From an uncultured Pseudomonadota bacterium (GTDB taxonomy: Bacteria > Vulcanimicrobiota > Vulcanimicrobiia > Eremiobacterales > Eremiobacteraceae): a stretch of DNA of 64,000 nt. Position 1 is the first letter of the stretch, and each line of letters begins with the position of its first letter. Below the pieces are notes generated by a model that searched no databases, was not told where the DNA came from, and saw nothing but the letters and a program-made list of their open reading frames with translations. The DNA is taken from the NCBI GenBank assembly GCA_963736005.1, contig CAVTNB010000003.1:64001-128000 (forward strand), read 5' to 3'. Of the stretch, positions 1-56,002 are shown piece after piece. Made by a program: the position numbers and the translations under genes.

Positions 1-1023
1 TGGCTCGACTTCACCGACGATGGCCGCAGCTCCAACGGCTCCGTTGATTGGTTGCGCTGCTAGCGTCTCGTTTGCTGTCCTCACAGCACGTTGCGCATCC
101 TGCGGCGACACAACCAGACAGAATCCAACCCCCATATTCAGCGTGCGGTATGCTTCATCTAAGGAAAGCCGCGCTTCGCGTGCGACCAGCGCCACGACAG
201 GTGGCACCCGCCAGCTCGCCGCGTCGAAGCGAGCCGCCAGTTGATCGGGCAGCGCGCGCGCAACATTGTCGATCAAACCGCCCCCGGTGATATGGGCCAT
301 GCTCTTTATCGTGACGCCGGACTGTTGAACCGCGCGTACGACTTGCAAATAGCTCGGGTGTATGGCAAGGAGTGCATCGCCAATAGTTGTTGCGCCACCC
401 TTCGCAACTGGTTCGCTCCATCGTGCTTGCGCGAGCACTTTGCGCGCCAGCGAATAGCCGTTGGTATGGAGCCCATTGGCCGGCAAACCGACGATCGCAT
501 CTCCAGCGCTGACGCTGGCCAGATCCAGCATGTCGCGCCGCTCGAGCGCGCCGACGATCGTCCCCGCAAGATCGAAAAGCGGTGGAGTATAGACGCCCGG
601 CATCTCGGCCGTCTCGCCACCGAGGAGCGCCATGCCATTCTCTCGACACGCGTTTGCGATACCGCCCACGATTGCTTCCGCGGCGTCAGCGTCAAGTTTT
701 CCCATCGCAAGGTAATCCAAAAAAAACAAGGGCTGTGCGTTCGAGCAGAGCAGATCGTTGATGCAGTGATTAACGAGATCGGCTCCGATGCCCGAATAGC
801 GTCCAAGAGTTGCCGCAACGATGACCTTGGTACCGACGCCATCGGTGCTAGCCACCAGCACCGGCTGGCGAAACCCTTCCAGCGAAAAACTTCCGCTGAA
901 GCCACCGATGCCTCGGAGCACCCGCGGGTCGGCGTGCTGGTCGAGAATCGACTGATAACGCGCGACCGTTTGGTTTGCAGCGTCGATGTCGACGCCCGCA
1001 GCGCGGTAAGCATCCTCCTTCAT
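1..1023 (-). CDS. purM: Phosphoribosylformylglycinamidine cyclo-ligase (AIR synthetase), 3' end runs off the window
   Basis: Not in the ORF track. Manual translation from ATG at 1023 gives MKEDAYRAAGVDIDAAN...GIGGFSG...LVASTDGVGTK, the PurM signature; codons at the window edge read ...IVGEVEP. Confidence 0.93.
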   Translation of the reverse strand, partial: MKEDAYRAAGVDIDAANQTVARYQSILDQHADPRVLRGIGGFSGSFSLEGFRQPVLVASTDGVGTKVIVAATLGRYSGIGADLVNHCINDLLCSNAQPLFFLDYLAMGKLDADAAEAIVGGIANACRENGMALLGGETAEMPGVYTPPLFDLAGTIVGALERRDMLDLASVSAGDAIVGLPANGLHTNGYSLARKVLAQARWSEPVAKGGATTIGDALLAIHPSYLQVVRAVQQSGVTIKSMAHITGGGLIDNVARALPDQLAARFDAASWRVPPVVALVAREARLSLDEAYRTLNMGVGFCLVVSPQDAQRAVRTANETLAAQPINGAVGAAAIVGEVEP

Positions 1024-1155
1024 AATATATTGCGTCGTTTGTCGCTCGGGTTGGCCCTCCCTATGCACGTGCCAAGGTCGCTTTGTCGGCTTTGTATAAT
1101 TGATACCGTCACGTCGTTCATGGAGCATCGAACCTTTCGGTTCGGGAGATACCTA

Positions 1156-3400: not shown

Positions 3401-4861
3401 CTAGTGGGGGACGGCTTGCGGTTCGCGTACTTTCCCGGTCAGCTCTTCATGGATGCCCACAGGATAATGACCGGTGAAACAACCCATGCAAAAATCGCTC
3501 CTGGGACGACCCGTCGCTTCGACAAGAGCATCTTCGCTCAGGTAGCCGAGAGAGTCGGCATTGATCGCCTGTTGAATCTCGGGAACGGTGAAGTTGGCGG
3601 CAATCAACTGCTCGTACGTAGCGGTATCAACACCCAAGAAGCACGGGTGCCGCATGGGCGGACACGTCAAACGCACGTGCACCTCTGAAGCACCAGCGCG
3701 TCGGAGCATGGCAACCAACTGGCGTGTGGTCGTGCCGCGGACAATTGAATCATCGACGAGCACGATCCGCTTGCCCCGAAGATTGGCCACCAGCGGATTG
3801 AATTTGAGCTTGACCCCCTGCGCACGCATGCTCTGATCCGGCGCAATGAACGTCCGCCCAATGTAACGGTTCTTCATGAGGCCTTCGATATATGGCAATC
3901 CGGATTCGTCAGCATACCCGATGGCGGCTGCCGTGGCGCTGTCCGGAACGCCGATGACGACATCGGCGGCAACGGGGCACTCGCGCGCAATGGCGCGGCC
4001 CATCCGGTAGCGGGCGAGATAGAGCTCCTGACCAGCATACATCGTGTCGGGCCGAGAGAAATAGATATATTCAAAGATGCAATTGGCAGGTTTGTACTCT
4101 GTCTCAACCTTCCGCGAGCGCATACCGCGCTCGTCGACAATGATGATTTCCCCGGGCTCGACCTCGCGCACAAACTCCGCACCCACGGTGTTGAGCGCGC
4201 ATGATTCAGACGCGATCATCCAACCCTCGCCGTAACGGCCGACGCACAGTGGCCGGACGCCCCACGGATCGCGGAATCCGAACAACTGCTGTTCGGTTGC
4301 CAAGACAATGGAAAAGGCCCCGATGCACCGCCGCATGATGGCTGCGATTCGCTCTTCCATGTCGCCGTGGTCCATTGCAGCGATCAGCTTCGCGAGAACA
4401 TCCGAGTCAGAGTCTGCTGCCTCGGAGATTTCTGGCGCGAGCTGGCGGCGAAGCGCTTCAGTGTTGACGAGATTCCCGTTGTGGGCAAGCGCAAAGGCCC
4501 CGAGGGCGCTTGTCGCAAGCAAAGGCTGCGCGTTGTACACGACGGACGAGCCGGTCGTAGAATAGCGGGTATGGCCAACTGACAAGTACCCGGGCAGGCC
4601 CGCCAGAATTTCTTCGGTGAAAATCTGCGACAAGAGACCCATCTGTTTGTGGACGCGCAAGTCCCTGCCATCGGATACAGCAATGCCGGCGCTTTCCTGA
4701 CCGCGGTGCTGGAGAGCGTACAATGCGAAGTAGGTTGGGCGAGCGACATCCTCGCCCGGCGCAAAGATGCCACACACGCCGCACGCGTCGTGTACGGCGT
4801 CCTCACTGCCGCTTGGCTTTGGGATGTATGGTTGGTGCACGTCCCGCTCGAGCTCTCCCAT
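3401..4861 (-). CDS. purF: Amidophosphoribosyltransferase
   Basis: DACGVCG N-terminal Cys, LQHRGQES, HTRYST, HNGNL, VLVDDSIVRGTT, Fe-S Cys motif CMGCF. Confidence 0.97.
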   Translation of the reverse strand: MGELERDVHQPYIPKPSGSEDAVHDACGVCGIFAPGEDVARPTYFALYALQHRGQESAGIAVSDGRDLRVHKQMGLLSQIFTEEILAGLPGYLSVGHTRYSTTGSSVVYNAQPLLATSALGAFALAHNGNLVNTEALRRQLAPEISEAADSDSDVLAKLIAAMDHGDMEERIAAIMRRCIGAFSIVLATEQQLFGFRDPWGVRPLCVGRYGEGWMIASESCALNTVGAEFVREVEPGEIIIVDERGMRSRKVETEYKPANCIFEYIYFSRPDTMYAGQELYLARYRMGRAIARECPVAADVVIGVPDSATAAAIGYADESGLPYIEGLMKNRYIGRTFIAPDQSMRAQGVKLKFNPLVANLRGKRIVLVDDSIVRGTTTRQLVAMLRRAGASEVHVRLTCPPMRHPCFLGVDTATYEQLIAANFTVPEIQQAINADSLGYLSEDALVEATGRPRSDFCMGCFTGHYPVGIHEELTGKVREPQAVPH

Positions 4862-4892: not shown

Positions 4893-6185
4893 TCAACGAA
4901 CCGCCGCCGCCGCGTGTTCGCCGATGTCGCAACGGTAGCGAAGCGAGAGGCCGGGCGGCAAACCGGTGATGTACCGCTCGACGCTTGCGTAGGCTCGCTT
5001 GCGAGCGTCGGCCATCTCATCGCCGAGCGCGCAAACGGTGAGGACACGGCCTCCGGATGCGTTGACCGATCTTGCGATCAGTGTCGAACCACCCCAAAAA
5101 GCCACGACATCGTCCGTCGGAGGCTCAAAGGGCGGCAACCCGTCCACCGGGTCGGATCGCTGTGGATAGTTCTGTGAGCAAAGCACGACCCCCACGCAGG
5201 CGCGCGACGAGAATTTCGGGGGCTCGCAGTCCGTCAAGCTCCCATTCGCTGCCGCACGCAGCAGGTCGGAGAAATTACCCTCGAGGCGCGGGAGGACAAC
5301 CTCGGTTTCCGGGTCGCCAAACCGTGCGTTGAACTCAAGCAGCATGGGCCCGCGCTGCGTCATCATCAATCCGGCGTAGAGGCAACCGCGGTAGTCGATG
5401 CCTTCGCTTTTGAGGCCAAGGAGCGTGGGCTCCAAGACCCTTTGGCGCACGAGTTCGAGCTTGGCTGGGTCGAGTACGTCGTCAGCGGGCGAGTACGCCC
5501 CCATGCCGCCTGTATTGGGTCCACTGTCGCCATCGTTGGCGCGCTTGTAGTCGCACGCACCGGCAAGCACGTAATACTGCTGGCCGTCCAGTACCGCCAT
5601 AACGGAGACTTCGCGACCTTCCAGCAGCTCTTCGATGACGATCGTCGTGCCGCCACCGGGAAGCTTGCGTTCGCCGTACCACCGAGCCAACACAACGCGG
5701 GCATCGTCCGCATTCGCGCAGACAACGACTCCCTTTCCAGCAGCGAGACCGTCTGCTTTCAACACAACGCCCTTTGGAAAATGTGCTAGCGCTCGTTCCG
5801 CTTGCTTGAGGTCGTGTGCTTCGCGGTGCCGCGCCGTGGGTACGCCGTGACGATCCATGAACTGCTTCGCATATGCCTTGCTCGTTTCAAGACGCGCGCC
5901 GGCGCTGTTTGGGCCAAAAACCGAAATGCCAGCTCCACGGAGCGCATCTCCAACTCCCGCGGCGAGTGCCGCCTCGGGACCGATGACTGCAAGATCGATC
6001 TGCTCGCGCAGCGCGCGTTCGACCAGCTCGAGCCTCGAGGTGGCCGCAATTGGCCAATTCGTGCCGAGCAGGGCGGTGCCGGCATTCCCGGGCGCTGCGA
6101 AAATCTGGTCGATGCTCTTTGATGCGGCGAGCTTCCAGACGAGCGCATGCTCTCTCGCTCCAGAGCCAACAACGAGCGCCTTCAT
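4893..6185 (-). CDS. purD: Phosphoribosylamine-glycine ligase
   Basis: VGSGAREHAL, APGNAG, KADGLAAGKGV, GPNTGGMGAYSP, EFNARFGDPE; ATGA overlap with the guaA stop. Confidence 0.97.
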   Translation of the reverse strand: MKALVVGSGAREHALVWKLAASKSIDQIFAAPGNAGTALLGTNWPIAATSRLELVERALREQIDLAVIGPEAALAAGVGDALRGAGISVFGPNSAGARLETSKAYAKQFMDRHGVPTARHREAHDLKQAERALAHFPKGVVLKADGLAAGKGVVVCANADDARVVLARWYGERKLPGGGTTIVIEELLEGREVSVMAVLDGQQYYVLAGACDYKRANDGDSGPNTGGMGAYSPADDVLDPAKLELVRQRVLEPTLLGLKSEGIDYRGCLYAGLMMTQRGPMLLEFNARFGDPETEVVLPRLEGNFSDLLRAAANGSLTDCEPPKFSSRACVGVVLCSQNYPQRSDPVDGLPPFEPPTDDVVAFWGGSTLIARSVNASGGRVLTVCALGDEMADARKRAYASVERYITGLPPGLSLRYRCDIGEHAAAAVR

Positions 6186-7732
6186 TCCCATTCGATGGTT
6201 GCGGGCGGCTTGCTCGTAATGTCGTACACCACTCGGTTGATTTCGGGAATCTCGTTGACGATGCGCGTCGAAATTTTCGCCAGCACCTCGGGGGCGAGGC
6301 GCGACCAGTCCGCGGTCATCCCGTCATCGCTTGCCACGGCGCGTATGGCGACCATGTTGCCGTAGGTCCGAAAATCACCCATGACTCCGACGCTGCGCAG
6401 CGGCGTGAGGACGGCGAAATATTGCCAAGGCTGCTCGGGTCCCCCGCGCTCGATTTCTTCGCGCGCGATGGCGTCGGCTCGTCGCAGCACGGATAGTCTC
6501 TGTTCGTCGACAGCCCCGAGAATGCGCACGGCCAGTCCAGGACCGGGAAACGGCTGTCTCTTCACGACGTGGTTGGGCAAACCAAGCTCGAGCCCCAGGC
6601 GGCGAACTTCATCCTTAAAGAGGAGCCGTAATGGTTCGATCAGCTTCAAGTTCATGATGTCCGGCAGTCCGCCCACGTTGTGATGCGTTTTTATCTTCGC
6701 CCCTCCTTTACTGAGCGGCGTCTTACTCTCGATCACATCTGGGTACAACGTGCCTTGCACTAAAAAGTCAACGCCTGGAATTTGCTTTGCCTGCTCTTCG
6801 AAGACCGCAATGAATTCGCGCCCGATGATGACCCGCTTCTCTTCTGGATCTTCAATGCCGGTGAGCTTATCGAGAAACCGTTGACTCGCATCGACGGCGA
6901 TCAAGTTGAGGTGCAACACGCCGCGGAATGCCGAAATAACTTGCTCGGCTTCTCCCTGTCGCAGGAGGCCGTGGTCCACGAAGATGCAGGTGAGCCGATC
7001 GCCGATCGCCCGTGCTACAAGCGTTGCCGCAACGGCGCTGTCGACCCCTCCGGAAAGGGCGCAGATCGCTCTTGCGGTGCCAAGCTGCGCGCGGATCTCT
7101 TCCACCGCAGCGTCGACGAAGGATGTCATCTCCCACTGCTGGTGCAAACCGGCGATCTTGCGCAGGAAATTTCGCAAGATTGTGCGCCCGTGTTCCGTGT
7201 GCTGCACTTCGGGGTGGAATTGCACGCCGTAGCGCTGCGTCTCGGGATCCCCGAACGCCGCCAGTGCACACGTCGGCGTGTGGGCAAGCTTGATGAAGCC
7301 CTTCGGCATTTCTGTGACCGTGTCGCCGTGGCTCATCCACACGAGAAACTGACTGGGCACGTCTAAGAACAGCAACGATTGGGCGGCATCCACCGTGAGC
7401 TCCGCGCGTCCATACTCCCGGATCGCTCCTGGTACGACTTGCCCCTTGCATGCGTAGGCGAGCTCCTGCATGCCGTAGCAAATGCCAAGAATGGGCTTGT
7501 CCGACTCCAAGATCTGCGGATGGATGTGCGGCGCACCCGACTCCAGGACGCTTTGGGGCCCACCCGTCAGGATGAAGGCGGACGGTTTGCTCCTCGCGAT
7601 TTCATTCCAGGGCGTGTCGTAAGAAAAGATTTCGCAGTAGACGCGCTCCTCGCGAACGCGACGGGCGATGAGTTGCGCGTATTGCGCCCCAAAATCGATG
7701 ATGGCAACCATCTCTGACGGTTGGTTTTTCAC
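6182..7732 (-). CDS. guaA: GMP synthase (glutamine-hydrolysing)
   Basis: IDFGAQY, GICYGMQ, QFHPEV, SGGVDS, IKTHHNVGGLP, YDITSKPPATIEWE. Confidence 0.98.
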   Translation of the reverse strand: MKNQPSEMVAIIDFGAQYAQLIARRVREERVYCEIFSYDTPWNEIARSKPSAFILTGGPQSVLESGAPHIHPQILESDKPILGICYGMQELAYACKGQVVPGAIREYGRAELTVDAAQSLLFLDVPSQFLVWMSHGDTVTEMPKGFIKLAHTPTCALAAFGDPETQRYGVQFHPEVQHTEHGRTILRNFLRKIAGLHQQWEMTSFVDAAVEEIRAQLGTARAICALSGGVDSAVAATLVARAIGDRLTCIFVDHGLLRQGEAEQVISAFRGVLHLNLIAVDASQRFLDKLTGIEDPEEKRVIIGREFIAVFEEQAKQIPGVDFLVQGTLYPDVIESKTPLSKGGAKIKTHHNVGGLPDIMNLKLIEPLRLLFKDEVRRLGLELGLPNHVVKRQPFPGPGLAVRILGAVDEQRLSVLRRADAIAREEIERGGPEQPWQYFAVLTPLRSVGVMGDFRTYGNMVAIRAVASDDGMTADWSRLAPEVLAKISTRIVNEIPEINRVVYDITSKPPATIEWE

Positions 7733-8868
7733 GTACAGACCTCCGCGAGCCGCCCACGATCGCGGGCCATGACGACCTCCTTTGCGATGCGTTCGCCAAC
7801 CGACATTTCCTTACCCCAACGATACGCCGAATACGGCGTGTACTTCGTTCCCGGCGATCCGGGAATGCGTAAGCTAACATCGTAGACGACGAACGACTTC
7901 GGCGGCCCGGGCGCGATGACGCACTGCAGCGCAAAAGGACCGATAATTCCTGGTGGGCTTTGGGAGCGCGCTGCCTTCACAAATCGCTCTCCCATGTCAA
8001 AGGCCTGTTCAAGCATCGATTCCGTGATCGTTGCCGCGATGTGGCCGGCCTCTTCCATCGATGCGGCAAAGGCCGCTCCCAGCGGCGCTTGATCGATCGC
8101 CAGCAGCGAGCGGATTCCGTCGATATTGGTTTGGCGCCGCGTGTCAGTTCCCAAGAGTTCGAGCTCCCCCAACACCGGCGACCAAAAGAAATTGAGGTTG
8201 ACCGTCGGACCCAAGACGTATTCCTCAAAGACGGCCTCGGCCAGTCCTTCTTGTGTGACGATGCCTGAAGCAAGATAGTGCGCTGCACGCTTTCGATACT
8301 GCTCGGGATTCGCGGCCAGAAAGAATGCGCGCTCATACTTTACCTTGGCATGCTGCGCCTTGATGAGGGTGAGACCGTCGATATCGTCTGGTCCTACGAG
8401 CCGCCGCGGATAGCGAATCCCTGCTGCGTCGAGCAGCTTGTACTGATTGTTCGCTTCGTCGCGCTCCTCGGCACGCAGCAAGCGACGCGATCCGAACATG
8501 GGGACCAGCATGGCCCGCTCGATCTCGTCATAGGAGTGCCGCTCTCGCGCGTACACTTCAAACGCACGATTCGGCACAAAAATCGCGTTGCGCTCGAGCA
8601 TGGCACGCTGACTCTCGTTGTTGATGACGTCCGCGAAGTGATCGACCATGATCACTTCATCGACGCATCCGGTGCCGTCCTCGCGGGTGCGATAAGCGAC
8701 TGTGTAGGTCTTCTCGCGGCGAGGCGCCGCAAACACGAGCGTGCGCAGGCCTTCGCGCTTGGCGCCCAAGCAGACGTCCAGCGCTGAATGACTCCCGATG
8801 CACGTCAGGGTGAGGCGGCGAGTATCGTACGAAGCGAGGGCGGCGCTGGGAGACGTCGCCTCGCCCAT
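7729..8868 (-). CDS. purP: PurP-like ATP-grasp protein (DUF1246/DUF1297; FAICAR synthetase family, second paralogue type)
   Basis: IGSHSALDV, FVPNRAF, FGSRRLLRAEER, ERAFFLA, DTRRQTNIDG, PPGIIGPFALQ, DVSLRIPGSPG, GERIAKE. Confidence 0.85.
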   Translation of the reverse strand: MGEATSPSAALASYDTRRLTLTCIGSHSALDVCLGAKREGLRTLVFAAPRREKTYTVAYRTREDGTGCVDEVIMVDHFADVINNESQRAMLERNAIFVPNRAFEVYARERHSYDEIERAMLVPMFGSRRLLRAEERDEANNQYKLLDAAGIRYPRRLVGPDDIDGLTLIKAQHAKVKYERAFFLAANPEQYRKRAAHYLASGIVTQEGLAEAVFEEYVLGPTVNLNFFWSPVLGELELLGTDTRRQTNIDGIRSLLAIDQAPLGAAFAASMEEAGHIAATITESMLEQAFDMGERFVKAARSQSPPGIIGPFALQCVIAPGPPKSFVVYDVSLRIPGSPGTKYTPYSAYRWGKEMSVGERIAKEVVMARDRGRLAEVCT

Positions 8869-9983
8869 CAGTTTGCGGGAACCCCGGGGCCAGGTACGGC
8901 GACCGACTCTCCGTTGTGCGCCGAGGATACGTCAAAGGACAATCGGCTCGCCCGGTCGAGGACGAGCTCGAGACTGTTCGAGAGCAGCGCGTTCTTGATC
9001 TCGCGTGCGATGCGCCGCCCGGTTGACATCGGTTCGTCATAGTTGAGATACGAATAGGGAGAGCCGTCAATGAAAAGGTTGGTGCCCGCAACGATGCGCG
9101 CGGAGATCTCCATAAGGAAGAATTCGGACTCCGACGTCACGATGGTCTCCAGGCAAAACGCGCCAAACAAACCGCGATCTGGACAGATCTCACGGCTCAC
9201 GCGCACGACGGCCTCGCCCATGTCGAATGCTTCCGCGAGGAGCGACTCCCGCAAGCTAATGGGTTGGTTGCCGATGACGACATAGGATGGCGAGATATCC
9301 CAGCCTTCCTGATCCGCGAGCGGAATGCGCCCCAGTGAATCTACGTTGCTTTCGTAACGGCGATCCATCGACATGATTTCGAGTTTGCCGGTCAGCGGCG
9401 AATAAAAGTAATGAATGTAGACGGGAACGCCGAGCACGTATTCTTGCATGATGTAGCGCTGCTCGACCAGGTGGGAGGCGCGCGCCGTAAAGTCCTCGGG
9501 GTTTTTGACAAAAAGATATCCCTTGCCGCCGTGCGCCCCATACAGTTTGACGATAACTGGGCGGTCGATCTCGCTCGCTTTCGTAAACTGCCGCGGCATC
9601 TTGAGGCCCGCCTTGGTGAGCCATTGGCGTTGGCGCATGCGATCGGCTTCCCAATCAAGCACCGCCTTGTTGCCGAAGTAGGGTGTCGTCATCCGCTTGT
9701 GCTCTTCCATTGAGAGATACGCCACGAAAGAGCCATGGGGGACGAGAATGACTTTGCGGCGATTGAGTTCTTGCTCGAGCTTGGGAAAATCGCCGTACCG
9801 GGGAATCACGATAACCTCGTCAACGAACGCGAAGCTTGAATACAACCGTTCGTTGAGTGGCGTCACCACGGCAAGCGTATGAAAGCCTTCGTCCTTGGCG
9901 CCCTTGAGGATTTGCAGCGCCGAGTGGCTGCCCAAGGTGGCGACAGTGAAGAGCGACGGCGGGTGCGTCGACTTGCGCTTCAT
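8868..9983 (-). CDS. purP: 5-formaminoimidazole-4-carboxamide ribonucleotide (FAICAR) synthetase, archaeal PurP type
   Basis: VATLGSHSALQILKGAKDEGF, VPHGSFVAY, GGKGY, MDRRYESNVD, LRESLL, EISARIVAGTN, GSPYS, MSTGRRIAREI. Start set at ATG 9983, which overlaps the upstream stop (ATGA). Confidence 0.92.
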   Translation of the reverse strand: MKRKSTHPPSLFTVATLGSHSALQILKGAKDEGFHTLAVVTPLNERLYSSFAFVDEVIVIPRYGDFPKLEQELNRRKVILVPHGSFVAYLSMEEHKRMTTPYFGNKAVLDWEADRMRQRQWLTKAGLKMPRQFTKASEIDRPVIVKLYGAHGGKGYLFVKNPEDFTARASHLVEQRYIMQEYVLGVPVYIHYFYSPLTGKLEIMSMDRRYESNVDSLGRIPLADQEGWDISPSYVVIGNQPISLRESLLAEAFDMGEAVVRVSREICPDRGLFGAFCLETIVTSESEFFLMEISARIVAGTNLFIDGSPYSYLNYDEPMSTGRRIAREIKNALLSNSLELVLDRASRLSFDVSSAHNGESVAVPGPGVPAN

Positions 9984-10507
9984 TTTCCGCTCTTCGCCGC
10001 GGACGCCGCCGGTTCCCCGACTTGCAGGCTGACGGGGCGGCGGCGAATCTGGAAGCGCTGGGAGACTGGGTTGCACAGCAGCGCTGCACATGCCCATTCG
10101 AGCCGGTCGCGAGCGGCGGAGCCCTTTGCCTCGTAGAGTCTCCAGCCGATGGCTCGCTCTAGCCCGAGCAGCGCAGTCATCCCAAAGGTCGTCACCAAGA
10201 GGTCCTGGAGCGGCCGGTTGTTCTCGTCCCTGTCGCGCACGAGTGCTTCGAACTGCGCGGGCTCGACGTCAGGCGCGTTCTCTGCGGCGTAACTCAGGCG
10301 ATGTTTGTTGGGGTTAAAGATGACTTCGGCATGCGACAGCTCGCTCGCGACCTCATCCGCGCGGGTACCATCCAAAACCTTAAGCAAAATGTGCTCCGAG
10401 CGCTCGACGTTCGTGAGTTCGGTGTAACCCAAGTGGTGAAGAGAGGTCAGCACGGTGAAGGCCGTGTTGTCGGGGATGATAGAGTCGATGGCAACGTCTA
10501 TTCTCAT
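9980..10507 (-). CDS. purS: PurS-like FGAM synthase subunit with two tandem PurS domains
   Basis: 175 aa, about twice a PurS. Two PurS-type ends (IFNPNKH and LLCNPVSQ, cf. LLANPV) and D-x-x-A...L..LGY in the first half; lies in the pur operon with small-type PurL and PurQ. Confidence 0.7.
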   Translation of the reverse strand: MRIDVAIDSIIPDNTAFTVLTSLHHLGYTELTNVERSEHILLKVLDGTRADEVASELSHAEVIFNPNKHRLSYAAENAPDVEPAQFEALVRDRDENNRPLQDLLVTTFGMTALLGLERAIGWRLYEAKGSAARDRLEWACAALLCNPVSQRFQIRRRPVSLQVGEPAASAAKSGK

Positions 10508-12021
10508 ATCGCTTCCACATAATCCGCCGGTGCCGTTTTATCAGCACCGCGCGGCACTCTCATGCCATCCAAGAAGAGCGTCAGCCCGATCGTCACCACC
10601 AGGTTCGCGATAAATCCATAGAGCGCCGCAAACCCCGGAACAACCAACGAGCCGAGATGCAACGGGTAGATGGAATGGAAACCATTCGATGCCGGCATGT
10701 AGGTCGCGATCGCCATGCCAACCAGCCATCCGCACAGCAGCGCTCGGCGATGGAACCAACGCGTATACATGCCAAAGATGAGTGTGGGAAACGTCTGGAG
10801 GATCCAGCCTCCCGCAAAAAGCTGAAAGTTGATTGCGTATTCGGTGGGCAGGCCGAGCACAAAGATGAGCGCGCCCAATTTCATCACAAGCGAGACAACT
10901 TTGGCATTGGTTGACTGCTGGCGATCGGTGCAGTTCGGGTTGATATATTCGCGATAAATATTGCGGGTGAAGAGGTTTGCCGAGGCAATCGACATGATTG
11001 CCGCCGGCACGAGCGCGCCGATTGCAATGGCTGCAAATCCAAAACCGGCGAACCACGGCGGAAACATTTTCAGGAACAGCTGCGGCACCGCTTCATTGGT
11101 CGTCTCGGGATTGATGCCCGCCGCAATTGCCATGTAACCAAACGTGGCCAGCACTGCCAGTAACAGGCTGTACATGGGCAACGCAATCATGTTGCGCCTG
11201 ATGACCCTCGGTCCAGAGGCGCTTAACACGCCGGTGATGTTGTGCGGGTACATGAAAATCGCTAATGCCGAACCGAGGGCCAGCGTGATGTAGGCGCTGT
11301 ATTCCGAAGGCGGCAAGAGCAGGCCAGTTGGTTTGGGTCTGACGGCCATCGCAGCGCCCGCCGCAGCGAAGATGTGCCCATAGCCTCCAAGCTTCGCTGG
11401 AATAATGATCGCAGCGGCGATGACCGTGATGTAGATGAGGGTGTCCTTTGCGATCGCCACGAGCGCCGGTGCGCGCAAGCCACCGCGGTATGTATACACC
11501 GCGAGGATGACAAAGGCGATGACGATCGGCACATCGCGCAAGATCCCAGTGCCTCCCAAACCCATCGCCTTGATGACGACCTGGATGCCCACGAGCTGGA
11601 GCGCAATGTACGGCATGGTGGCGGCAATGCCCGTGACCGCCACCGCCAGCGACAGGCTGCGGCTGTCATAGCGCTCGCGGGCGAAGTCTGCATAGGTGAT
11701 GTAGCCCCGATTCTTTGCGATGGTCCAAAAGCGCGGCGCAAAGATAAAAACCAGCGGGAAGGCGATCGCCGTGTACGGCAAAGCGTAGAACGCAAGCGCT
11801 CCCGTGCCATAAACGAAACCGGGCACCGCGATGAACGTGTAGGCGGTGTACAGATCGCCGCCGATGAGAAACCAGGAAATGAGCGTGCCGAACTGGCGCC
11901 CTCCAAGCGCCCATTCATGCAACAGATCCAAATTGCCGCGGCGCCAGTACTGACCGAGGAATCCCAAGACCGTGACGAGCCCGAACAACACAACGAAGAC
12001 GACAACTGCCGGCCAGATCAT
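10504..12021 (-). CDS. Sodium:solute symporter, MctP/YhjB monocarboxylate permease type
   Basis: LHEWALGGRQFG, WFLIGGDLYTAYTFIAVP, ATMPYIALQLVG, ALVPAAIMSIASANLFTRNIY; many TM helices. Start 12021 overlaps the DUF3311 stop. Confidence 0.9.
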   Translation of the reverse strand: MIWPAVVVFVVLFGLVTVLGFLGQYWRRGNLDLLHEWALGGRQFGTLISWFLIGGDLYTAYTFIAVPGFVYGTGALAFYALPYTAIAFPLVFIFAPRFWTIAKNRGYITYADFARERYDSRSLSLAVAVTGIAATMPYIALQLVGIQVVIKAMGLGGTGILRDVPIVIAFVILAVYTYRGGLRAPALVAIAKDTLIYITVIAAAIIIPAKLGGYGHIFAAAGAAMAVRPKPTGLLLPPSEYSAYITLALGSALAIFMYPHNITGVLSASGPRVIRRNMIALPMYSLLLAVLATFGYMAIAAGINPETTNEAVPQLFLKMFPPWFAGFGFAAIAIGALVPAAIMSIASANLFTRNIYREYINPNCTDRQQSTNAKVVSLVMKLGALIFVLGLPTEYAINFQLFAGGWILQTFPTLIFGMYTRWFHRRALLCGWLVGMAIATYMPASNGFHSIYPLHLGSLVVPGFAALYGFIANLVVTIGLTLFLDGMRVPRGADKTAPADYVEAI

Positions 12022-12233
12022 TCGCGCCCCGCGTCGTGCGCCAGAATATACACCGCCCAAATGATCAACGCCGTGGCCGCAATCCAGACGAACTGATACC
12101 AATAAAAAAACGGTACGCCGGCTATGGATGGCTCCATCGAATTGTACGAGGGGGCCCACAGCATGACTATATAGGGAACGACGAGCAACCAATACCAGCG
12201 TCGCCTAGCGGCGCCCGATTGTCGCTGCTGCAT
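12018..12233 (-). CDS. DUF3311 small membrane protein (SSS accessory subunit, YhjC type)
   Basis: LLVVPY..LW.PSYN..EP.IAGVPFFYWYQFVW, two TM helices, directly upstream of the SSS gene. Confidence 0.88.
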   Translation of the reverse strand: MQQRQSGAARRRWYWLLVVPYIVMLWAPSYNSMEPSIAGVPFFYWYQFVWIAATALIIWAVYILAHDAGRE

Positions 12234-12282: not shown

Positions 12283-12306
12283 GGCGATTTTCCAATCGCC
12301 CCTACA
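12283..12306 (-). repeat. GTAG-tailed palindromic repeat (family C) supplying the purQ stop codon
   Basis: Minus strand ATG-TAG-GGGCGATTGGAAAATCGCC. Confidence 0.75.
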
Positions 12307-13036
12307 TGTTCAAGGCGCGGGCCATGCTTTGAAAGATCAGGTCTGACGTTGAGGTCTTCATCGGGTCGAGCCCACGCAGCGTTGGATCGTCAAAAGCGAG
12401 ATTAAAGTTCCAGGCGACACGTTCGGGATGTGGCATGATCGCAAGGACGTTGCCCGCGGCATTGCAGATGCCAGCTGCTCCGTGCATGGCGCTGTTGGGC
12501 GCCGAACCAACGTAACGAAAAGTGATGCGTTGATCTCGTTCGAGCGCGTCGAAAAGCGCAGGCTCGCCCGTGAAACGACCCTCACCATGTGCCATCGCCA
12601 TCTTCATCCTGATGCCTTTGGGAAGGGCCGCCGTGAGCGCGCAGCGCTCTGGCACCGCGGCAAGCTCGACGTCAAGAATGCGACATTGGAAATGGCCGGA
12701 GGGGAGATTTCGAGCGATCGCGATCGGCCCGAGAAGGCCTGCTTCGGCAAGCACCTGTGCTCCGTTGCAAAGACCCAAGACTACCTTACCGCGGGTTGCT
12801 TCTTCCGCGACGACCGTGACGCTCGGCGATTTCGCTGCAATCGCCCCGGCGCGCACTCGATCTTCGAAAGCGAATCCGCCGGGCAGCACATACCCCGCAA
12901 AGTCCCGCAAATTGCCGGGCGGCTCACTCCAAAGAACGGCGCGAGCGTCGAGTCCCGCAGCCGTGCAAGCATCGACCGTCTCCTCTTCTGAATTGGTGCC
13001 GGGAAAAACCAGCACGGCGATTCGTGGGGCCTTCAC
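12302..13036 (-). CDS. purQ: FGAM synthase glutaminase subunit PurQ
   Basis: VFPGTNSE, LPGGFAFED, GLCNGAQVL, AHGEGRF, GNVLAIMPHPER. Confidence 0.96.
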   Translation of the reverse strand: MKAPRIAVLVFPGTNSEEETVDACTAAGLDARAVLWSEPPGNLRDFAGYVLPGGFAFEDRVRAGAIAAKSPSVTVVAEEATRGKVVLGLCNGAQVLAEAGLLGPIAIARNLPSGHFQCRILDVELAAVPERCALTAALPKGIRMKMAMAHGEGRFTGEPALFDALERDQRITFRYVGSAPNSAMHGAAGICNAAGNVLAIMPHPERVAWNFNLAFDDPTLRGLDPMKTSTSDLIFQSMARALNM

Positions 13037-15390
13037 GCGAACAAATCCCGGAGCGGACGCATCCAGCTTTCGGAAAGATCGGCGAGACCGACGCTACACA
13101 GACCCTCGATCGTCAGACTCGTGCCACCCGTGTGTCCGAGCCGGATCGGCGCAGCACCCGAGCCCCGAGCGAGATCCTCGAATCGATCGACCTCCTTGGG
13201 GTCTATCGTAACGACGAAGCCGCCCGATTCGCCGAAGAGCGCCGACGATGCTGGAATGTTCGGGGCCCACTGCTCCAGAGGAAGCAGCGAGGCGCCGATG
13301 CTTCCATTCCCTTCGCCTCCCAAGCACATCTCTGCGACGCACGCGAGCACGCCGCCATCTGAAATGTCGTGCGCTGCGGTGATGCTGCCAATGTGAATGC
13401 CCTTGAGAACGGTGGCGATGTCTGCATTGACTTCGTCGTAGTCGATTGCAGGCAGCGGCCCAGCGTCGCGCAGGTGCAGCACATCGGCTAAGACCGAACC
13501 GCCCAGCCCCGTGTCGCGTGCGCCGAGCAGATACAGATGCTGGTTCGGGAACATGATGTTCATCGTCACGATTTTGCCGACATTCTCGATGCGACCAATG
13601 CAGGCCACGATTGCCGATGGCACGATCGCAGTGCCTGACGCAGAATAGTTGTAAAGGCTGACGTTGCCGCTGATGAAAGGTAATCCATCCGCTGACGCTA
13701 CGGTGATCGCACGTGCCGCTTCTGCCAACCCCAAGACGCCGTCTGCAAGCTCGCGATAGGCAACCGGATCTTCCGGATTGCCGTAGTTGAGGCAATCGGT
13801 CAGGCCGATGGGCAAAGCGCCCACGGCAGCGACGTTGCGAGCCGATTCGACGACCGCGTGCGCTGCCGCCATTTTGGCGGAAATTGCTCCAAAGCGTGCG
13901 TTGCCGTCGACCGAAATTGCAATGGCCAGGGGAGAGCCGCGACGAACGACCAGCACGCCCGCATCCGCATACCCAGGGGGAAGAGCCGTCGCTCCTCGCA
14001 CGACCGAATCGTAGTGCTCGACGAGCGGCCGCCGGCTGCATACGTCTTGGTGAGACAAAACGCGAAGCAGGGTACCGGCAACATCTGAGAGCGGCGGCGG
14101 TGCAACCTGTGCGATCTCCGGCGGCGAAGGCGCAAGCGTCCAGCTAGCCCTGACCGGCTGCGTGAGAACGTCGATTGGCAAGGCACAGATTGAACGGCCG
14201 GCTGCGGTCAGAACGTACCAGGGCTCGCGGGTTACCGTTCCGATGACCGCCGCCCTCGCGTTGGCTGAAACTTCCGGAAGCGTATATCGCTCGTTGTACA
14301 GAGCGAGCAACTCCGTTGTGAACGAAGGCGGTACCGCCCACAACATGCGCTCCTGCGTCTCGGCCATTGCGACCACGAAGGGTGAAAGGCCGGCAAGCGC
14401 TACCGGAATTTTCTCGATGTCAATGCGCGCACCAAAACCGCCGGCGCTACACATCTCCGACGAACTTCCCATGATGCCGCCGGCGCCCAAGTCTTTAAAC
14501 CCCGCCTTGATCCCGCGTTTTGCAATGAGTTCAAACGCGGCATAACTTGCTCGCATGATCACATTCTTGAGAAACGGATCGGGAACTTGGACAGCACTTT
14601 TGTTCGCTTCTGCTTCTTGCGCATCCAGTATCAGCGAAGCGAAAGCGGCGCCCCCAAAGCCGGAGCCGTCGGTCGCCTTCCCAACCAGCACGAGGTCGTA
14701 GCCCTCGCCACAGGAGGGGACTCGGCTGTGAATGATCCGGTCGCGTTCGACGAAGCCAAGCGCGACAACGTTGACCAAGCAATTGTGACTAAAGGACGGG
14801 TGAAAGTACACGTCGCCTGCCAAGTTGGGAACCCCGACGGCATTCCCATAGGCCGCGATGCCATCCACCACACCGGTTGCAACGTAGGCTTGGTGTGAGC
14901 CAGCAACGGGTGGTCCAAAGCGTAATGGGTCAGCGCTTGCGACAACTTTCGCCCCCATGCAGAGCACGTCGCGCAAAACGCCTCCAATCCCGGTTGCTGC
15001 GCCTTCAAAGGGCACGACTTGCGACGGATGGTTATGACTTTCGTGTGCGACGACCACGCCGTATTCCGTGCCGTCAACAATTCCCACGCGCAAAATGCCC
15101 GCGTCTTCCCCAACCGGCACGAGCACATCAACGCCTTGGGTCGGTAATTGGGCCAACAGCGCGCGACTGCTTTTGTACGAGCAATGCTCGCTCCACTGAA
15201 TGGCAAAGGCGTGAGCCTCGGTGCGCGTTGGATTGCGCCCCAATCGCTCTCGAATCGCGCGCAATTCCTGGGGGGTGAGCGCAAGCGCCTCGCGGTCTGC
15301 GAGGCGCTTCAGTTCATCGTCGCTGCTCTCGTCAAGCGGCAGCGGTTGTGCCGCAAGCTCTATCAGGTCTGCCGTGGCAGCAAAGCCCAT
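13033..15390 (-). CDS. purL: FGAM synthase subunit PurL (small type)
   Basis: QWSEHCSYKSS, ESHNHPS, GAATGIGG, AVQVPDPF, DLGAGG, ETQERM, TDCLNYGNPE, SGNVSLYN, AHDISDGG. Confidence 0.97.
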   Translation of the reverse strand: MGFAATADLIELAAQPLPLDESSDDELKRLADREALALTPQELRAIRERLGRNPTRTEAHAFAIQWSEHCSYKSSRALLAQLPTQGVDVLVPVGEDAGILRVGIVDGTEYGVVVAHESHNHPSQVVPFEGAATGIGGVLRDVLCMGAKVVASADPLRFGPPVAGSHQAYVATGVVDGIAAYGNAVGVPNLAGDVYFHPSFSHNCLVNVVALGFVERDRIIHSRVPSCGEGYDLVLVGKATDGSGFGGAAFASLILDAQEAEANKSAVQVPDPFLKNVIMRASYAAFELIAKRGIKAGFKDLGAGGIMGSSSEMCSAGGFGARIDIEKIPVALAGLSPFVVAMAETQERMLWAVPPSFTTELLALYNERYTLPEVSANARAAVIGTVTREPWYVLTAAGRSICALPIDVLTQPVRASWTLAPSPPEIAQVAPPPLSDVAGTLLRVLSHQDVCSRRPLVEHYDSVVRGATALPPGYADAGVLVVRRGSPLAIAISVDGNARFGAISAKMAAAHAVVESARNVAAVGALPIGLTDCLNYGNPEDPVAYRELADGVLGLAEAARAITVASADGLPFISGNVSLYNYSASGTAIVPSAIVACIGRIENVGKIVTMNIMFPNQHLYLLGARDTGLGGSVLADVLHLRDAGPLPAIDYDEVNADIATVLKGIHIGSITAAHDISDGGVLACVAEMCLGGEGNGSIGASLLPLEQWAPNIPASSALFGESGGFVVTIDPKEVDRFEDLARGSGAAPIRLGHTGGTSLTIEGLCSVGLADLSESWMRPLRDLFA

Positions 15391-16664
15391 CAGGTCCCCG
15401 CTTTACCACTCCCTGCGGGGGCGTTGAGCTGCGCGTCGGACTCGGTGACGTGCATGCGGTTGCGATACTGCGCAACGACGACTCGACCGTAGAGCACCGA
15501 ATCATCGGAGGCGAGAATTTTCGCAGCGGCAAGTGCAGCGTTTTCGGGCTCGAGGACGACCATGCTTGCGACCCCGCCCGGAAGAGCGAGACTGGAGACC
15601 ACTTCCATGCCGCCCCAGGTCGAACCAAGCACGGGGCAGGCGATGACCGGATTCGCCGTCGCGGCATCGACAAAGGCTGAGAGGGCGTTGCTTCTCCCGG
15701 CGATCGTTATGTAAACCGCCCGGCCGAGCATGTTGTCGATTTGCTGAACTTTTTGCAGCGCGTACAGAGGGGTCTTGTGGGCCGAGGCGACGTGACGGCG
15801 CGCTGGGACTCCCAAATTCTCGAGCGCTTTTGCAATCTTGTCTGCGTGCGCCGCATCCGAAGTCGAACCCATGATGATGCCAACGAAGCCACCGCCCCGC
15901 TTGGAGAATTGTCCGACACGCTCTGCAACTTCTTCGTACTTGGATTTTACGCTGTCGAGATCAGACGCACTCGGGACTGCGATGTTGCGATAGATTTGCT
16001 TGTCGAGCATCAGCGCTTGCTCGCCGGCGGGCCAAATTCGCCACGAGTCGTTGTCGATGACGTCCGCGAGGATAATCTCTGTGCCACCGTCTGCGGTCTT
16101 TGCGCGCCCGAATTCGACTTTGAGGTCGACGAGGAGCACGTTCTGTTGGCGCCAAGCATGTGCGAGGATGTCGAAGATCAGCCGCGCGTAGTCGGACATG
16201 ATGGCGACCTCGGCTTGGGTTGCGATCTTCTCTTCGACGATTTGCTCTGCCGTATACTGAGGATCGTGACGCGAGTCGTCTTTGAAGAAATACTCGACCA
16301 GGCGAGGCGCAAACACCGTGCCCGATTTGACGCCCGGGTTGCGCTTGAGATAGGAGCCTGCTGCGATGCCTCGCACGACGACTTCGATCGGAATCATCTC
16401 GCAGCGGCGCACGATCATCTCGTTTGCGTCTTCATCTTCACCGCCGCTGATGAAGTGCGTCGGCAACCCAGCCGCGTTGAGCAAGCGATAGACGCGGCTC
16501 GCCGTGAGCGCTGCGAGCCGGCCTTTGCCCGCAATGGTATGGCGTTTTGCCCCGTCGCCGGCCGTAATGTTGTCCTGCTGGACCACCACAAGTGCGTCCA
16601 TCTGATCGGGATGTTGGTAGAGTACCTTGGTCTTGCCGCGACCGACCTCAGCGCCTTTGTTCAC
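15390..16664 (-). CDS. purC: Bifunctional SAICAR synthetase / class II AIR carboxylase (PurC-PurE fusion, PAICS-like)
   Basis: N-domain GKTK, ITAGDG, IPIEVVVR..AAGS, FFKDD..HDP, DLKVEFG, LADVIDNDSWRIW, DKQIYR. C-domain IMGSTSD, ASAHKTP, AGRSNAL, PVIACP, SSLALPGG, AALAAAKIL. Confidence 0.93.
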   Translation of the reverse strand: MNKGAEVGRGKTKVLYQHPDQMDALVVVQQDNITAGDGAKRHTIAGKGRLAALTASRVYRLLNAAGLPTHFISGGEDEDANEMIVRRCEMIPIEVVVRGIAAGSYLKRNPGVKSGTVFAPRLVEYFFKDDSRHDPQYTAEQIVEEKIATQAEVAIMSDYARLIFDILAHAWRQQNVLLVDLKVEFGRAKTADGGTEIILADVIDNDSWRIWPAGEQALMLDKQIYRNIAVPSASDLDSVKSKYEEVAERVGQFSKRGGGFVGIIMGSTSDAAHADKIAKALENLGVPARRHVASAHKTPLYALQKVQQIDNMLGRAVYITIAGRSNALSAFVDAATANPVIACPVLGSTWGGMEVVSSLALPGGVASMVVLEPENAALAAAKILASDDSVLYGRVVVAQYRNRMHVTESDAQLNAPAGSGKAGT

Positions 16665-16697: not shown

Positions 16698-16723
16698 TGT
16701 AGTCGCGCGAATTTATTCGCGCG
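16698..16723 (+). repeat. GTAG-tailed palindromic repeat (family B) overlapping the purB stop
   Basis: TGTAGTCGCGCGAATTTATTCGCGCG; the purB TAA lies in the loop. Confidence 0.85.
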
Positions 16724-18149
16724 CCCGAAGTTCAATATCCAAAACTTTTTGCGCCGCCTTTGCCTCGGCAAGGGTTCGCAGTGATGCCGCCAGTTTTCGA
16801 GCTCGCTGCGCCGCAAGCCCCGTGTGTTTTTCAACTTTCATCGCCTGCTGGAGTTCGCCCGGCTTCACGTATGTGGCGATGTAATCGTCCTGCTCAAGCA
16901 GGCCGGCAAGCGGATTGCGCTCGTCTTTCTCGACGGCCTCCCACGCGCGCATCGAGAGTTCTCGCAGCCGTTCGTGCAGCTCTTGCCGGTTCGCGCCGCG
17001 CTTCGCGGCCATCATCAAAACGGCTTCGGTACACGCAAAAGGCCCAAACCGTGCCAGGTTTCTGGCAATACCGGCCTTATCCACTCGCAGGCCGCTGATT
17101 ACCTTGTGCACGAGCGCCGTTATTTCATCTGCCGCCAAGAATGACTCGGGAATGATGGTGCGACGATTGGCGGAGTCGTCAAGCGTCCGTTCGAGGAGAT
17201 TGTCTGCCGCATTCTGCCAGGCAATCTGTGCATTCGCGGCGGGAATACGCGCCAGCGAGTTGATGCGCTCGCACAACATTGGGTTTCGCTTGAACGGCAT
17301 GGCCGACGAGCCGACTTGCTTGCGACCGAAGGGCTCGCCGAGCTCGCCGAATGGACTCGAGGCAAGCACCCGAAGATCGAAGGCGAATTTGGAACACGAT
17401 GCTGCAAAACCGGCGATGGCGCTCAGAACCATATAGTCGAGTTTGCGCGGATAGGTCTGGCCGCTGACGGCCAGGGCCGCGAGGTCGAACGCGGCAAGCA
17501 CGTCTCGCTCGAGATCGTCGGGCGAGGACTTTGCTTCCTTTAGGAGTGCGCTGTAAGAGGCGGACGTCCCCACAGCTCCCCGGAGGCCTTTGCTCGGCAG
17601 CCATGCCGCGATACGGCTTAGCTCCTGGTAGTCGATGAGCATGTCTTGCGCCCAGAGCGCAAGACGCATCCCGAGCGTCGTCGGCTCGGCCGCTTGGAGA
17701 TGGGTGTATCCCATACATGGCAGGTCTGCATACTCGTCAATCTTATCCGCGAAGATTTTGAGCGCATCGGCGATGCCGCTGACGAGCATGGAGAGCGCGA
17801 CTTTGATGCGGGCCGTTTCCACGTTATCTTCCACATCCATGGAGGTCGCGCCCAGGTGAAGCTTGCCACCGCCTATCTTAGCCTGCGATGCAAAGACCCG
17901 AAGTTCTGCCATGAGATCGTGGCCGATTTCGGCCTCGATGGTGTGCGCAGCCTTAATATCCACCGCGTCGACGTAGCGGCGCAGGTCCGCAACCTCTTCT
18001 TCGCTGACGAGACCCGCTTTGGATTGTGCCTGCGCGAGCGCCAGCCAAAGGCGCCGCCACATGCGGCGTTTGGTTTCTTCGGAAAACAGCGCCCGCATGG
18101 CTGGGCGGCCGTAGCGCCATGAAAATGGAGATTGGTAAGACTCGGTCAC
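16713..18149 (-). CDS. purB: Adenylosuccinate lyase
   Basis: HDLMAE, LHLGATS, GYTHLQAAEPTT, GSSAMPFKRNP, ERTLDDSANRR. Confidence 0.97.
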   Translation of the reverse strand: MTESYQSPFSWRYGRPAMRALFSEETKRRMWRRLWLALAQAQSKAGLVSEEEVADLRRYVDAVDIKAAHTIEAEIGHDLMAELRVFASQAKIGGGKLHLGATSMDVEDNVETARIKVALSMLVSGIADALKIFADKIDEYADLPCMGYTHLQAAEPTTLGMRLALWAQDMLIDYQELSRIAAWLPSKGLRGAVGTSASYSALLKEAKSSPDDLERDVLAAFDLAALAVSGQTYPRKLDYMVLSAIAGFAASCSKFAFDLRVLASSPFGELGEPFGRKQVGSSAMPFKRNPMLCERINSLARIPAANAQIAWQNAADNLLERTLDDSANRRTIIPESFLAADEITALVHKVISGLRVDKAGIARNLARFGPFACTEAVLMMAAKRGANRQELHERLRELSMRAWEAVEKDERNPLAGLLEQDDYIATYVKPGELQQAMKVEKHTGLAAQRARKLAASLRTLAEAKAAQKVLDIELRARE

Positions 18150-55109: not shown

Positions 55110-56001
55110 TCATCATAGGTTTGCCTTCAGGAATGACGTTGGTCAAGCAGATGGCGCCCGACGAGGTTGCGATGACTGGACCGAGCTCATTCCAGTCTAC
55201 GACATCACCCGGCGCTGCGTTCTCGGGCCGCGATGACGCGTGCGCCACGACATTGGCTTCCAATACCTTGAGCCGTTTGCCCTCGAACGTCATCCAAGCG
55301 CCTGGTTTGGGGCTTACAGATCGGATTTGGTTCACGACAGCTCGCGCCGGCACGTCGAACCGCAGGCGCAAGTCTTCTTTTGTGATTGGTCGCGTATAGG
55401 TGGCTGCTTCCGCGCGCTGGGGCGTGCGCGGAAGATTGCCTTCGCTCAACCGCTGTGCGGCTTCGCCAAGCAGGTCGCCACCGATACGGGCAAGTTTGTC
55501 GTGGAGCGATCCATAATTGTCGTCCGAGTCAATCTGCACGCTTCTCGAAAGAGCGATGTCACCATCGTCTGTGCCTGCGCCCATCCAAAACACGGTTACA
55601 CCGGTTTGGTCTCGCCCATCCCGCAAGGCTGCCTGAATCGGCGTCGCCCCGCGATATTCTGGTAGAAGGCTTGGGTGAACGTTGAGCGCCCTCAAACCTT
55701 CGATTGCCAAAAGGTTCGTCGGTAAAATCTTTCCGTACGATGCGCAGGCAAGAAGCGTGGGCCGCAATGATGCGATCTGCGCAATAAACTCACCGTCGAG
55801 CCGCCTGGGGAGGAGGAGGACCGCGCTAGCCTCGCGCGTTGCTTTGGCAACCGGCGTTGGGGTCAGGGCGAGTCCGCGGCCCGCAGGTCTGTTCGGCTGC
55901 GAGACAACGGCCACCACCTCTTGCTCTGCGAGCATGCGCTGCAGCGACGGAAGTGAAAAATCGGAGCTCCCAAAAAAAACCGTCCTGAGGCGGCCCGCCA
56001 T
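55069..56001 (-). CDS. fmt: Methionyl-tRNA formyltransferase
   Basis: VFFGS..F, SQPNRPAGRG, YGKILP, NVHPSLLP.YRGATPIQ, P.PGAW. Confidence 0.96.
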   Translation of the reverse strand: MAGRLRTVFFGSSDFSLPSLQRMLAEQEVVAVVSQPNRPAGRGLALTPTPVAKATREASAVLLLPRRLDGEFIAQIASLRPTLLACASYGKILPTNLLAIEGLRALNVHPSLLPEYRGATPIQAALRDGRDQTGVTVFWMGAGTDDGDIALSRSVQIDSDDNYGSLHDKLARIGGDLLGEAAQRLSEGNLPRTPQRAEAATYTRPITKEDLRLRFDVPARAVVNQIRSVSPKPGAWMTFEGKRLKVLEANVVAHASSRPENAAPGDVVDWNELGPVIATSSGAICLTNVIPEGKPMMSGAEFAKRTKRNG

Positions 56002-56002
56002 C

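Follow-up and report, generated by a model that had tools for sequence, protein, structure and literature searches.

A purine operon with two PurP genes

The 64,000-nucleotide stretch analysed here (the window) covers positions 64,001 to 128,000 of contig CAVTNB010000003.1 and belongs to the metagenome-assembled genome of a soil bacterium of the Eremiobacterota (GCA_963736005.1; 2.84 Mb, 6 contigs, 84% complete; G000 below). On its minus strand, between 3401 and 18149, it carries an almost complete purine operon, in which two genes of the PurP family lie in tandem: PurP II (8868..9983, minus strand; protein P0002, 371 aa, cluster Ib type) and PurP III (7729..8868, minus strand; protein P0001, 379 aa, cluster II type). 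A sequence-only reading of the window had proposed exactly such an arrangement, two PurP paralogues of two types inside a bacterial purine operon, and Pfam matches, solved-structure matches and motifs bear it out. The bacterial nature of the window genes is evident from holA and others.

Profile hidden Markov model searches place both proteins in the PurP family and not in another ATP-grasp family, a point that the reading had left to be checked. P0002 matches PF06849 (DUF1246; E 7e-41, 139.4 bits) and PF06973 (DUF1297; E 6e-65, 218.9 bits), and P0001 matches the same two families (PF06849, E 8e-35, 119.9 bits; PF06973, E 8e-55, 185.7 bits), against Pfam gathering cut-offs of 25 and 23.8, respectively. 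Solved PurP structures align across residues 14-342 of P0002 and 13-370 of P0001, nearly the full length of each; the best solved match is 2r84 (P. furiosus PF1517; E 2e-102) for P0002 and 2r7k (E 3e-63) for P0001. For PurP II, a start at 9983 agrees better with the alignments than a longer open reading frame (ORF) of 409 aa.

The two genes are coupled to each other, to purS and to guaA, as had been suggested. Stop and start codons overlap at all three junctions: ATGA between purS and PurP II (9983-9980), TGATG between PurP II and PurP III (8870-8866), and GTGA between PurP III and guaA (7732-7729).

Diagnostic residues of the two proteins

Archaeal PurPs fall into groups that a few positions of MJ0136 can tell apart. 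Clusters Ia and Ib have Asn258 and a (K/R)GG(K/R)G loop at 161-165, whereas in cluster II position 258 is His and the loop, longer by two residues, lacks the glycines; the formyl-group contacts His27 and Arg314 are described as 100% conserved in archaeal PurPs, and a Ser or Thr at position 94 contacts the 5'-phosphate of 5-aminoimidazole-4-carboxamide ribonucleotide (AICAR) (Brown 2011, PMC3261824). Cruz 2019 (PMC6486802) names the members of cluster I PurP I and PurP II, and those of cluster II PurP III.

P0002 carries the equivalents of His27, Ser94, Asn258 and Arg314, and it shows both cluster I features, Asn258 (VIGNQP) and a glycine-rich loop (GAHGGKG), although the first residue of its HGGKG segment is His where the consensus has K/R. 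P0001 lacks both of these features and shows those of cluster II instead, with His at 258 (EAGHIA) and the loop KAQHAKVKYERAFFL, which has a two-residue insertion relative to MJ0136 and no Gly motif. His27 and Arg314 are present in both proteins (GSH and SARIV in P0002, GSH and SLRIP in P0001), whereas the Ser/Thr at 94 is found in P0002 (PHGSF) and is replaced by Ala in P0001 (PNRAF), against a consensus of PNRSF in the PurP III alignment made here. All the motifs quoted in the sequence-only reading are thus in place: GSHSALQI, PHGSF and EISARIVAGTN in P0002, and GSHSALDV, PNRAF and DTRRQTN in P0001. Its label "canonical" for P0002 was loose, however, since the protein is closest to PF1517, a PurP II reported to be inactive alone as a FAICAR (5-formamidoimidazole-4-carboxamide ribonucleotide) synthetase (Brown 2011; Cruz 2019).

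P0001 and P0002 share 31% identity. Because they belong to different PurP types by these diagnostic residues, the pair is read as an ancient combination of PurP II and PurP III, not as a local duplication. The same division extends to their relatives. A search of 1.84 billion representative proteins returned 471 PurP-family members at E<=0.001, and among the 150 best of these, the 63 that are 320-440 residues long fall, together with P0001 and P0002, into two motif classes, save a few fragmentary or atypical rows.

The PurP III alignment of 56 sequences contains 20 invariant columns, including R101, K170, E179, R180, H276, D330 and R334. The His equivalent to position 258 is invariant in this alignment. 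Such constancy argues that the PurP III site is remodelled but conserved rather than decayed. Predictions of a PurP II/PurP III complex from two alignments (A2 and A1) scored 0.22 and 0.17 against a mark of 0.32 and weigh neither way on binding.

Comparison with known PurP systems

The nearest known system is the archaeal pair of PurP II and PurP III, exemplified by PF1517 and PF0421 of P. furiosus and by the adjacent pairs of Sulfolobales, Pyrobaculum and Korarchaeum. The window pair resembles it in its two paralogue types, as judged by diagnostic residues, in the presence of one copy of each type per genome, and in the frequent adjacency of the two genes within purine gene clusters. Among the sequence-level features of the archaeal pair, two are missing, namely Ser94 in P0001 and, in both proteins, a score that reaches the NCBIfam equivalog cut-off; all the others are present. 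The differences lie in the free-living bacterial host, in the class-wide coexistence with a full PurH, in the Ala at the Ser94 position of P0001, and in the HGGKG loop of P0002 in place of (K/R)GG(K/R)G.

With PurP I, represented by MJ0136 (PDB 2r7k-2r7n), the window proteins share family and fold, His27 and Arg314 in both cases, and Ser94, Asn258 and the glycine-rich loop in P0002. Unlike them, MJ0136 works alone, in organisms without PurH1, and by best match and pairing both window proteins fall outside its cluster. MJ0136 is a formate- and ATP-dependent FAICAR synthetase (Brown 2011, PMC3261824; Cruz 2019, PMC6486802), the only PurP for which this activity has been demonstrated.

Distribution, conservation and selection

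An evenly drawn sample of 151 genomes of the phylum, G000 included, reveals that the pair is a property of the whole class Eremiobacteria (families f1-f3). PF06973 occurs in 82/82 class genomes, against 1/69 genomes in the other families of the phylum. Two matches are found in 80 of the 82, G000 among them, and three in the remaining 2, so that the one-to-one pattern of PurP II and PurP III described by Cruz 2019 is seen here too. PurH is equally persistent: it was detected in 100/101 sampled class genomes, the single miss being a genome 72% complete, and in 87/87 of the high-quality ones. These tallies include genomes flagged as unpublished (G128 in the PF06973 and PurH counts, G159 and G165 in the PurH count), and the conclusions are the same without them.

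Gene order is just as stable. The order purB-purCE-purL-purQ-purS-PurP II-PurP III-guaA-purD-purF, on one strand and with PurP II upstream of PurP III, is kept in 32/35 related loci, and the other 3 end at a contig edge. The two PurP genes are directly adjacent in 15 loci and about 1.1 kb apart in 17. The gap in these 17 more distant Eremiobacteria loci (for example L016:6810-7958, plus strand) holds an ORF of roughly 380 aa (382 aa in that example), which finds no match in Pfam and whose N-terminus is hydrophobic and signal-like.

Both PurP genes are under strong purifying selection. Relative to the closest locus, L034 (dS about 0.32-0.34), the ratio of nonsynonymous to synonymous substitution rates (dN/dS) is 0.004 for PurP II and 0.047 for PurP III, while guaA and purQ give 0.053 and 0.096; in more distant locus pairs, synonymous sites are saturated. 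No protein of the operon is better conserved over the 35 loci than PurP II (70-92% identity, against 48-91% for purL), and PurP III (52-97%) is conserved roughly like guaA (48-96%).

Phylogeny and origin

The PurP phylogeny that the sequence-only reading had proposed as a check was built as a quick maximum-likelihood tree of 76 rows, midpoint rooted, with support from the Shimodaira-Hasegawa-like approximate likelihood ratio test (SH-aLRT) only and with 12 fragmentary or atypical representatives left out. In this tree, the Eremiobacteria PurP II proteins form one clade (SH-aLRT 100), sister (97) to proteins that NCBI names as Peregrinibacteria or Patescibacteria. The Eremiobacteria PurP III proteins likewise form one clade (100), sister (95) to a set of metagenomic proteins, the P0142 group, and both are nested with Micrarchaeota proteins in a clade with a support of 95. 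The nearest named relatives of the representative that is sister to P0002 thus belong to the Candidate Phyla Radiation (CPR), and those of PurP III are Micrarchaeota together with an archaeal contig group. Identity between the Eremiobacteria proteins and these Peregrinibacteria/Patescibacteria and archaeal relatives is 47-52%, and the two Eremiobacteria clades agree in their internal branching. Unlike the CPR relatives, Eremiobacteria are not CPR bacteria; their genomes span 2-5 Mb, and the phylum has a cultured member (PMC9758169).

The idea that the P0142 group is the CPR counterpart to the sister group of PurP II was considered and rejected. Its contigs carry archaeal ribosomal proteins (an archaeal-type L10, and L1 by PRK04203 at 220.7 bits vs 203) and an archaellin-type N-terminal domain, their PurP III gene precedes PurP II, and their PurP II shares only 42-45% identity with the Peregrinibacteria protein. 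It is therefore not shown that both genes came from one donor. Contigs of this type (L053-L065) have a low GC content (0.31-0.38) and place PurP III, then PurP II, near purC, purA, purB, purE and purQ. Taken as a whole, the tree agrees with one early acquisition and vertical co-inheritance of the two genes thereafter, their relatives lying among DPANN archaea and CPR bacteria.

PurH and other one-carbon enzymes of the genome

The sequence-only reading had noted that no purH, purN, purT or purO is visible in the window and had supposed that this bacterium formylates AICAR with free formate. The observation stands for the window, where fmt (55069..56178, minus strand) is the sole formyltransferase gene, with purH, purT and purO falling outside it and a PurN-like gene lying 26 bp beyond its left edge. 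As far as it rests on the absence of purH and purN, the supposition is not supported by the genome search. G000 encodes a full bifunctional PurH on contig C1 (PF01808, 300.9 bits; NF002049, 539.5 bits vs a cut-off of 402), so that half of what the reading had named as speaking against it was found, together with the PurN-like gene, FolD and PurU (386.9 bits vs 286). Because a full PurH is present in G000 and in 100/101 class genomes, the PurP pair does not replace the folate route; it is an addition to PurH.

The PurN-like gene (G000:C3:63325-63975, minus strand) lies directly downstream of purM (about 61..1011 of the window by match coordinates, minus strand; TIGR00878, 325 bits, above cut-off). 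Its product matches TIGR00639 in two stretches at 123.7 bits, under the cut-off of 150, and PF00551 at 98 bits. An insertion of about 30 residues separates the N-x-H motif from the region of the catalytic Asp, and the N-x-H and D motifs, which we take to be the PurN motifs, are both kept.

Several alternatives were searched for and not found in this 84%-complete genome: PurT (best score 52.5 bits vs a cut-off of 502, from a biotin carboxylase-like protein), PurO, formate-tetrahydrofolate (THF) ligase (FTHFS), and PurK (best 30 bits, below cut-off). Across the sample, FTHFS occurs in 4/82 class genomes vs 38/69 in the rest of the phylum, a contrast that reflects essentially one lineage split and is statistically weak. 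With FTHFS scarce in the class and PurT not found in G000, the PurP pair is the only homologue of the known enzymes that bring formate directly into purines (FTHFS, PurT, PurP) in most of the class. The genome also holds a gene for an FdhA-like formate dehydrogenase alpha subunit (G000:C1:1914932-1916794, plus strand; 652 bits vs a cut-off of 666) with one in-frame TGA, possibly a selenocysteine codon.

Other genes of the operon and the window

Upstream of the PurP pair, all on the minus strand, the operon comprises purB (16713..18149; Lyase_1 and ADSL_C), a purC-purE fusion (15390..16664; SAICAR_synt and AIRC, TIGR00081 and TIGR01162), a small-type purL (13033..15390; AIRS, AIRS_C and FGAR-AT linker domains), purQ (12302..13036; PF13507), an MctP-like monocarboxylate permease gene (10504..12192; NF046076, 701.7 bits vs a cut-off of 625) and purS (9980..10507; 175 aa, PF02700 on residues 2-72). 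Downstream follow guaA, encoding GMP synthase (6182..7732; GATase and GMP_synt_C in Pfam, GTG start), purD (4893..6191; GARS_N/A/C domains) and purF (3401..4861; GATase_6/7 and Pribosyltran), also on the minus strand.

Several of these genes have unusual features. The permease gene between purQ and purS occurs in the window and in 6/35 related loci, closer relatives only; it may have a role in the supply of formate or another monocarboxylate, an idea that we offer as a lead. PurS is about twice the usual length. Taken alone, its second half finds nothing in Pfam, and NCBIfam PurS matches it only weakly (residues 126-158); the protein could be a degenerate tandem PurS. The purC-purE fusion shares its domain order with animal PAICS, and its PurE half carries SAHKTP and AGRSNALS, presumably signatures of class II (PurK-independent) PurE.

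Outside the operon, an M17 leucyl aminopeptidase gene (241-2707, plus strand) is split across two frames near 1935, with catalytic-domain positions 1-78 in ORF 241-2385 and 81-310 in ORF 1940-2707; the cause is a frameshift, which is either genuine or introduced in assembly. In an ORF at 19522-20901 (minus strand), residues 1-149 are a lumazine synthase (RibH) and residues 165-458 an MtnA-type methylthioribose-1-phosphate isomerase that is truncated relative to the profile; the ORF represents either an unusual fusion or a frame error.

Proposed function of the PurP pair

The reading that we prefer, and to which we give about an even chance, is that the pair was acquired horizontally and provides a formate- and ATP-dependent, folate-independent route for AICAR formylation beside PurH. 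Both genes would have been gained at or near the base of the class Eremiobacteria and inherited vertically since. They occupy the place in the operon expected for an AICAR-formylating enzyme, with purH elsewhere in the genome. PurP II and PurP III most likely cooperate: ATP and AICAR would be bound by PurP II, PurP III would be its obligatory partner, and the two would convert AICAR, formate and ATP into FAICAR without folate. Ring closure of FAICAR would then fall to the inosine monophosphate (IMP) cyclohydrolase domain of PurH.

Work on the archaeal proteins is consistent with this scheme, as PF1517 binds ATP and AICAR and is inactive alone, and PurP II is reported never to occur without PurP III in the archaea surveyed (Cruz 2019, PMC6486802). 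The idea of a heteromeric pair, which the sequence-only reading had raised, is not new, since Cruz 2019 had already speculated on PurP heterohexamers. That neither the pair nor PurH has displaced the other in this class argues that the two are non-redundant and that each supplies something the other does not; in the simplest split, PurH would provide the cyclohydrolase and the pair independence from 10-formyl-THF.

E. coli offers a functional parallel. There, PurT, a formate-using ligase of the ATP-grasp type, stands beside PurN, the 10-formyl-THF-dependent transformylase, and both carry out the same step, a case that Brown 2011 also mentions. The PurP pair may relate to PurH as PurT does to PurN, as a formate-using bypass parallel to the 10-formyl-THF route. 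The likeness is one of function only, because PurT acts at the step of glycinamide ribonucleotide (GAR), belongs to another family and is a single protein, not a pair.

A number of observations weigh against the proposed route. P0001 lacks the glycine-rich loop thought to bind ATP and has Ala in place of Ser94, the contact to the AICAR phosphate, and both proteins miss the cut-offs of the NCBIfam equivalog "formate--phosphoribosylaminoimidazolecarboxamide ligase" (P0002 384.3 vs 580, scored as the 409-aa ORF; P0001 247 vs 556). FAICAR synthetase activity (EC 6.3.4.23) of PurP II/PurP III is a prediction, and PF1517 and the PurP III protein PF0421 were each reported inactive as tested alone (Brown 2011, PMC3261824; Cruz 2019, PMC6486802). 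The folate route in G000 is complete (PurN-like protein, PurH, FolD), which makes the pair dispensable on paper. Tight coupling is not universal either: in one genus and a few further genomes, 27-50 kb separate PurP II from PurP III, or the two are on different contigs. The phyletic contrasts count as essentially a single evolutionary event, the related genomes not being independent.

The source of formate is a further difficulty. FocA-type channels and pyruvate formate-lyase were not found in the 84%-complete G000. PurU was considered as a general supplier for the class and rejected, as it is present in G000 but in only 8/82 class genomes and so does not explain the source. Deformylase, GTP cyclohydrolases and uptake are possible sources.

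The strongest alternative, possible though unlikely in our judgement, treats the two proteins as separate enzymes. PurP II alone would be the FAICAR synthetase, with formate or another donor, and PurP III would catalyse a different step, such as the conversion of FAICAR to IMP or some other ligation. PurP III has its own invariant set (NR for HG, ER in the loop, His for Asn258), as expected of a changed rather than a dead active site, and the wide separation of the genes in some genomes suits independent action. Brown 2011 (PMC3261824) notes that PurP III lacks a P-loop and that organisms with duplicate purP genes partly coincide with those lacking purO and purH2, and it speculates that a cluster II PurP closes the FAICAR ring to IMP. 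In Eremiobacteria, however, PurH with its IMP cyclohydrolase domain is kept in every one of the high-quality class genomes, so a second cyclase is not needed. The inactivity of PF1517 on its own (Cruz 2019, PMC6486802) also counts against separate action, and the strict one-to-one co-occurrence of PurP II and PurP III is more simply explained by cooperation.

A further proposal, which we consider quite unlikely, is that PurP III is not a second formate ligase but the partner without which PurP II is inactive; its part would be to activate the one-carbon unit, to deliver it, or to close the ring of FAICAR. If this were true, the operon pair would be a self-contained, folate-free branch from AICAR towards IMP, and Eremiobacteria, being free-living and from a phylum with a strain in culture, would be the first tractable bacterial system for a question of PurP II/III function that has been open since 2008.

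Formylation of GAR instead of AICAR, which the sequence-only reading had also entertained, is highly improbable. The pair would then substitute for PurT, itself an ATP-grasp enzyme, and be needed because PurT is missing from G000 and the PurN-like protein is atypical, with its insertion and its score below the cut-off. Yet that protein retains its N-x-H and D motifs, and P0002 keeps the MJ0136 contacts to AICAR and the formyl group at His27, Ser94, Asn258 and Arg314. In archaea, moreover, PF1517 binds AICAR (Cruz 2019, PMC6486802), and those with the pair are reported to have PurT or PurN as well (Brown 2011, PMC3261824). That the pair is a functionless or decaying remnant of gene transfer would suit the complete folate-dependent route and the predicted status of an activity whose tested archaeal representatives are inactive alone (Cruz 2019, PMC6486802), but it is effectively refuted by the conservation data, with both genes kept in all 82 class genomes, very low dN/dS for each, and in PurP II the highest identity of the operon.

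Significance

PurP has been regarded as an archaeal signature, a view in line with a survey of 1,403 genomes that states PurPs to be present only in archaeal genomes (Cruz 2019, PMC6486802). Over a third of the archaea in that survey have only the II + III pair for the ninth purine step, and neither protein was active alone. A whole-word literature search retrieved no paper containing both "purP" and "Eremiobacterota", and none of the words "purP", "purine", "formate" and "folate" occurs in the main text of the article that describes the cultured Vulcanimicrobium strain. In public records, the proteins already carry the label DUF1297 or FAICAR synthetase. What is added here is a free-living lineage outside the CPR, a pair strictly conserved across a class together with PurH in 100/101 genomes, and the FTHFS contrast within the phylum.

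A bacterial class with this pair corrects the published statement that PurPs are confined to archaea. What PurP II and PurP III do biochemically has been a question since 2008, and here is a class that has kept both under strong constraint next to a normal PurH. Eremiobacteria also offer a mesophilic system in which to test this role, their phylum having a cultured member, and hint at a way for free formate to enter purines in lineages that lack formate-THF ligase.

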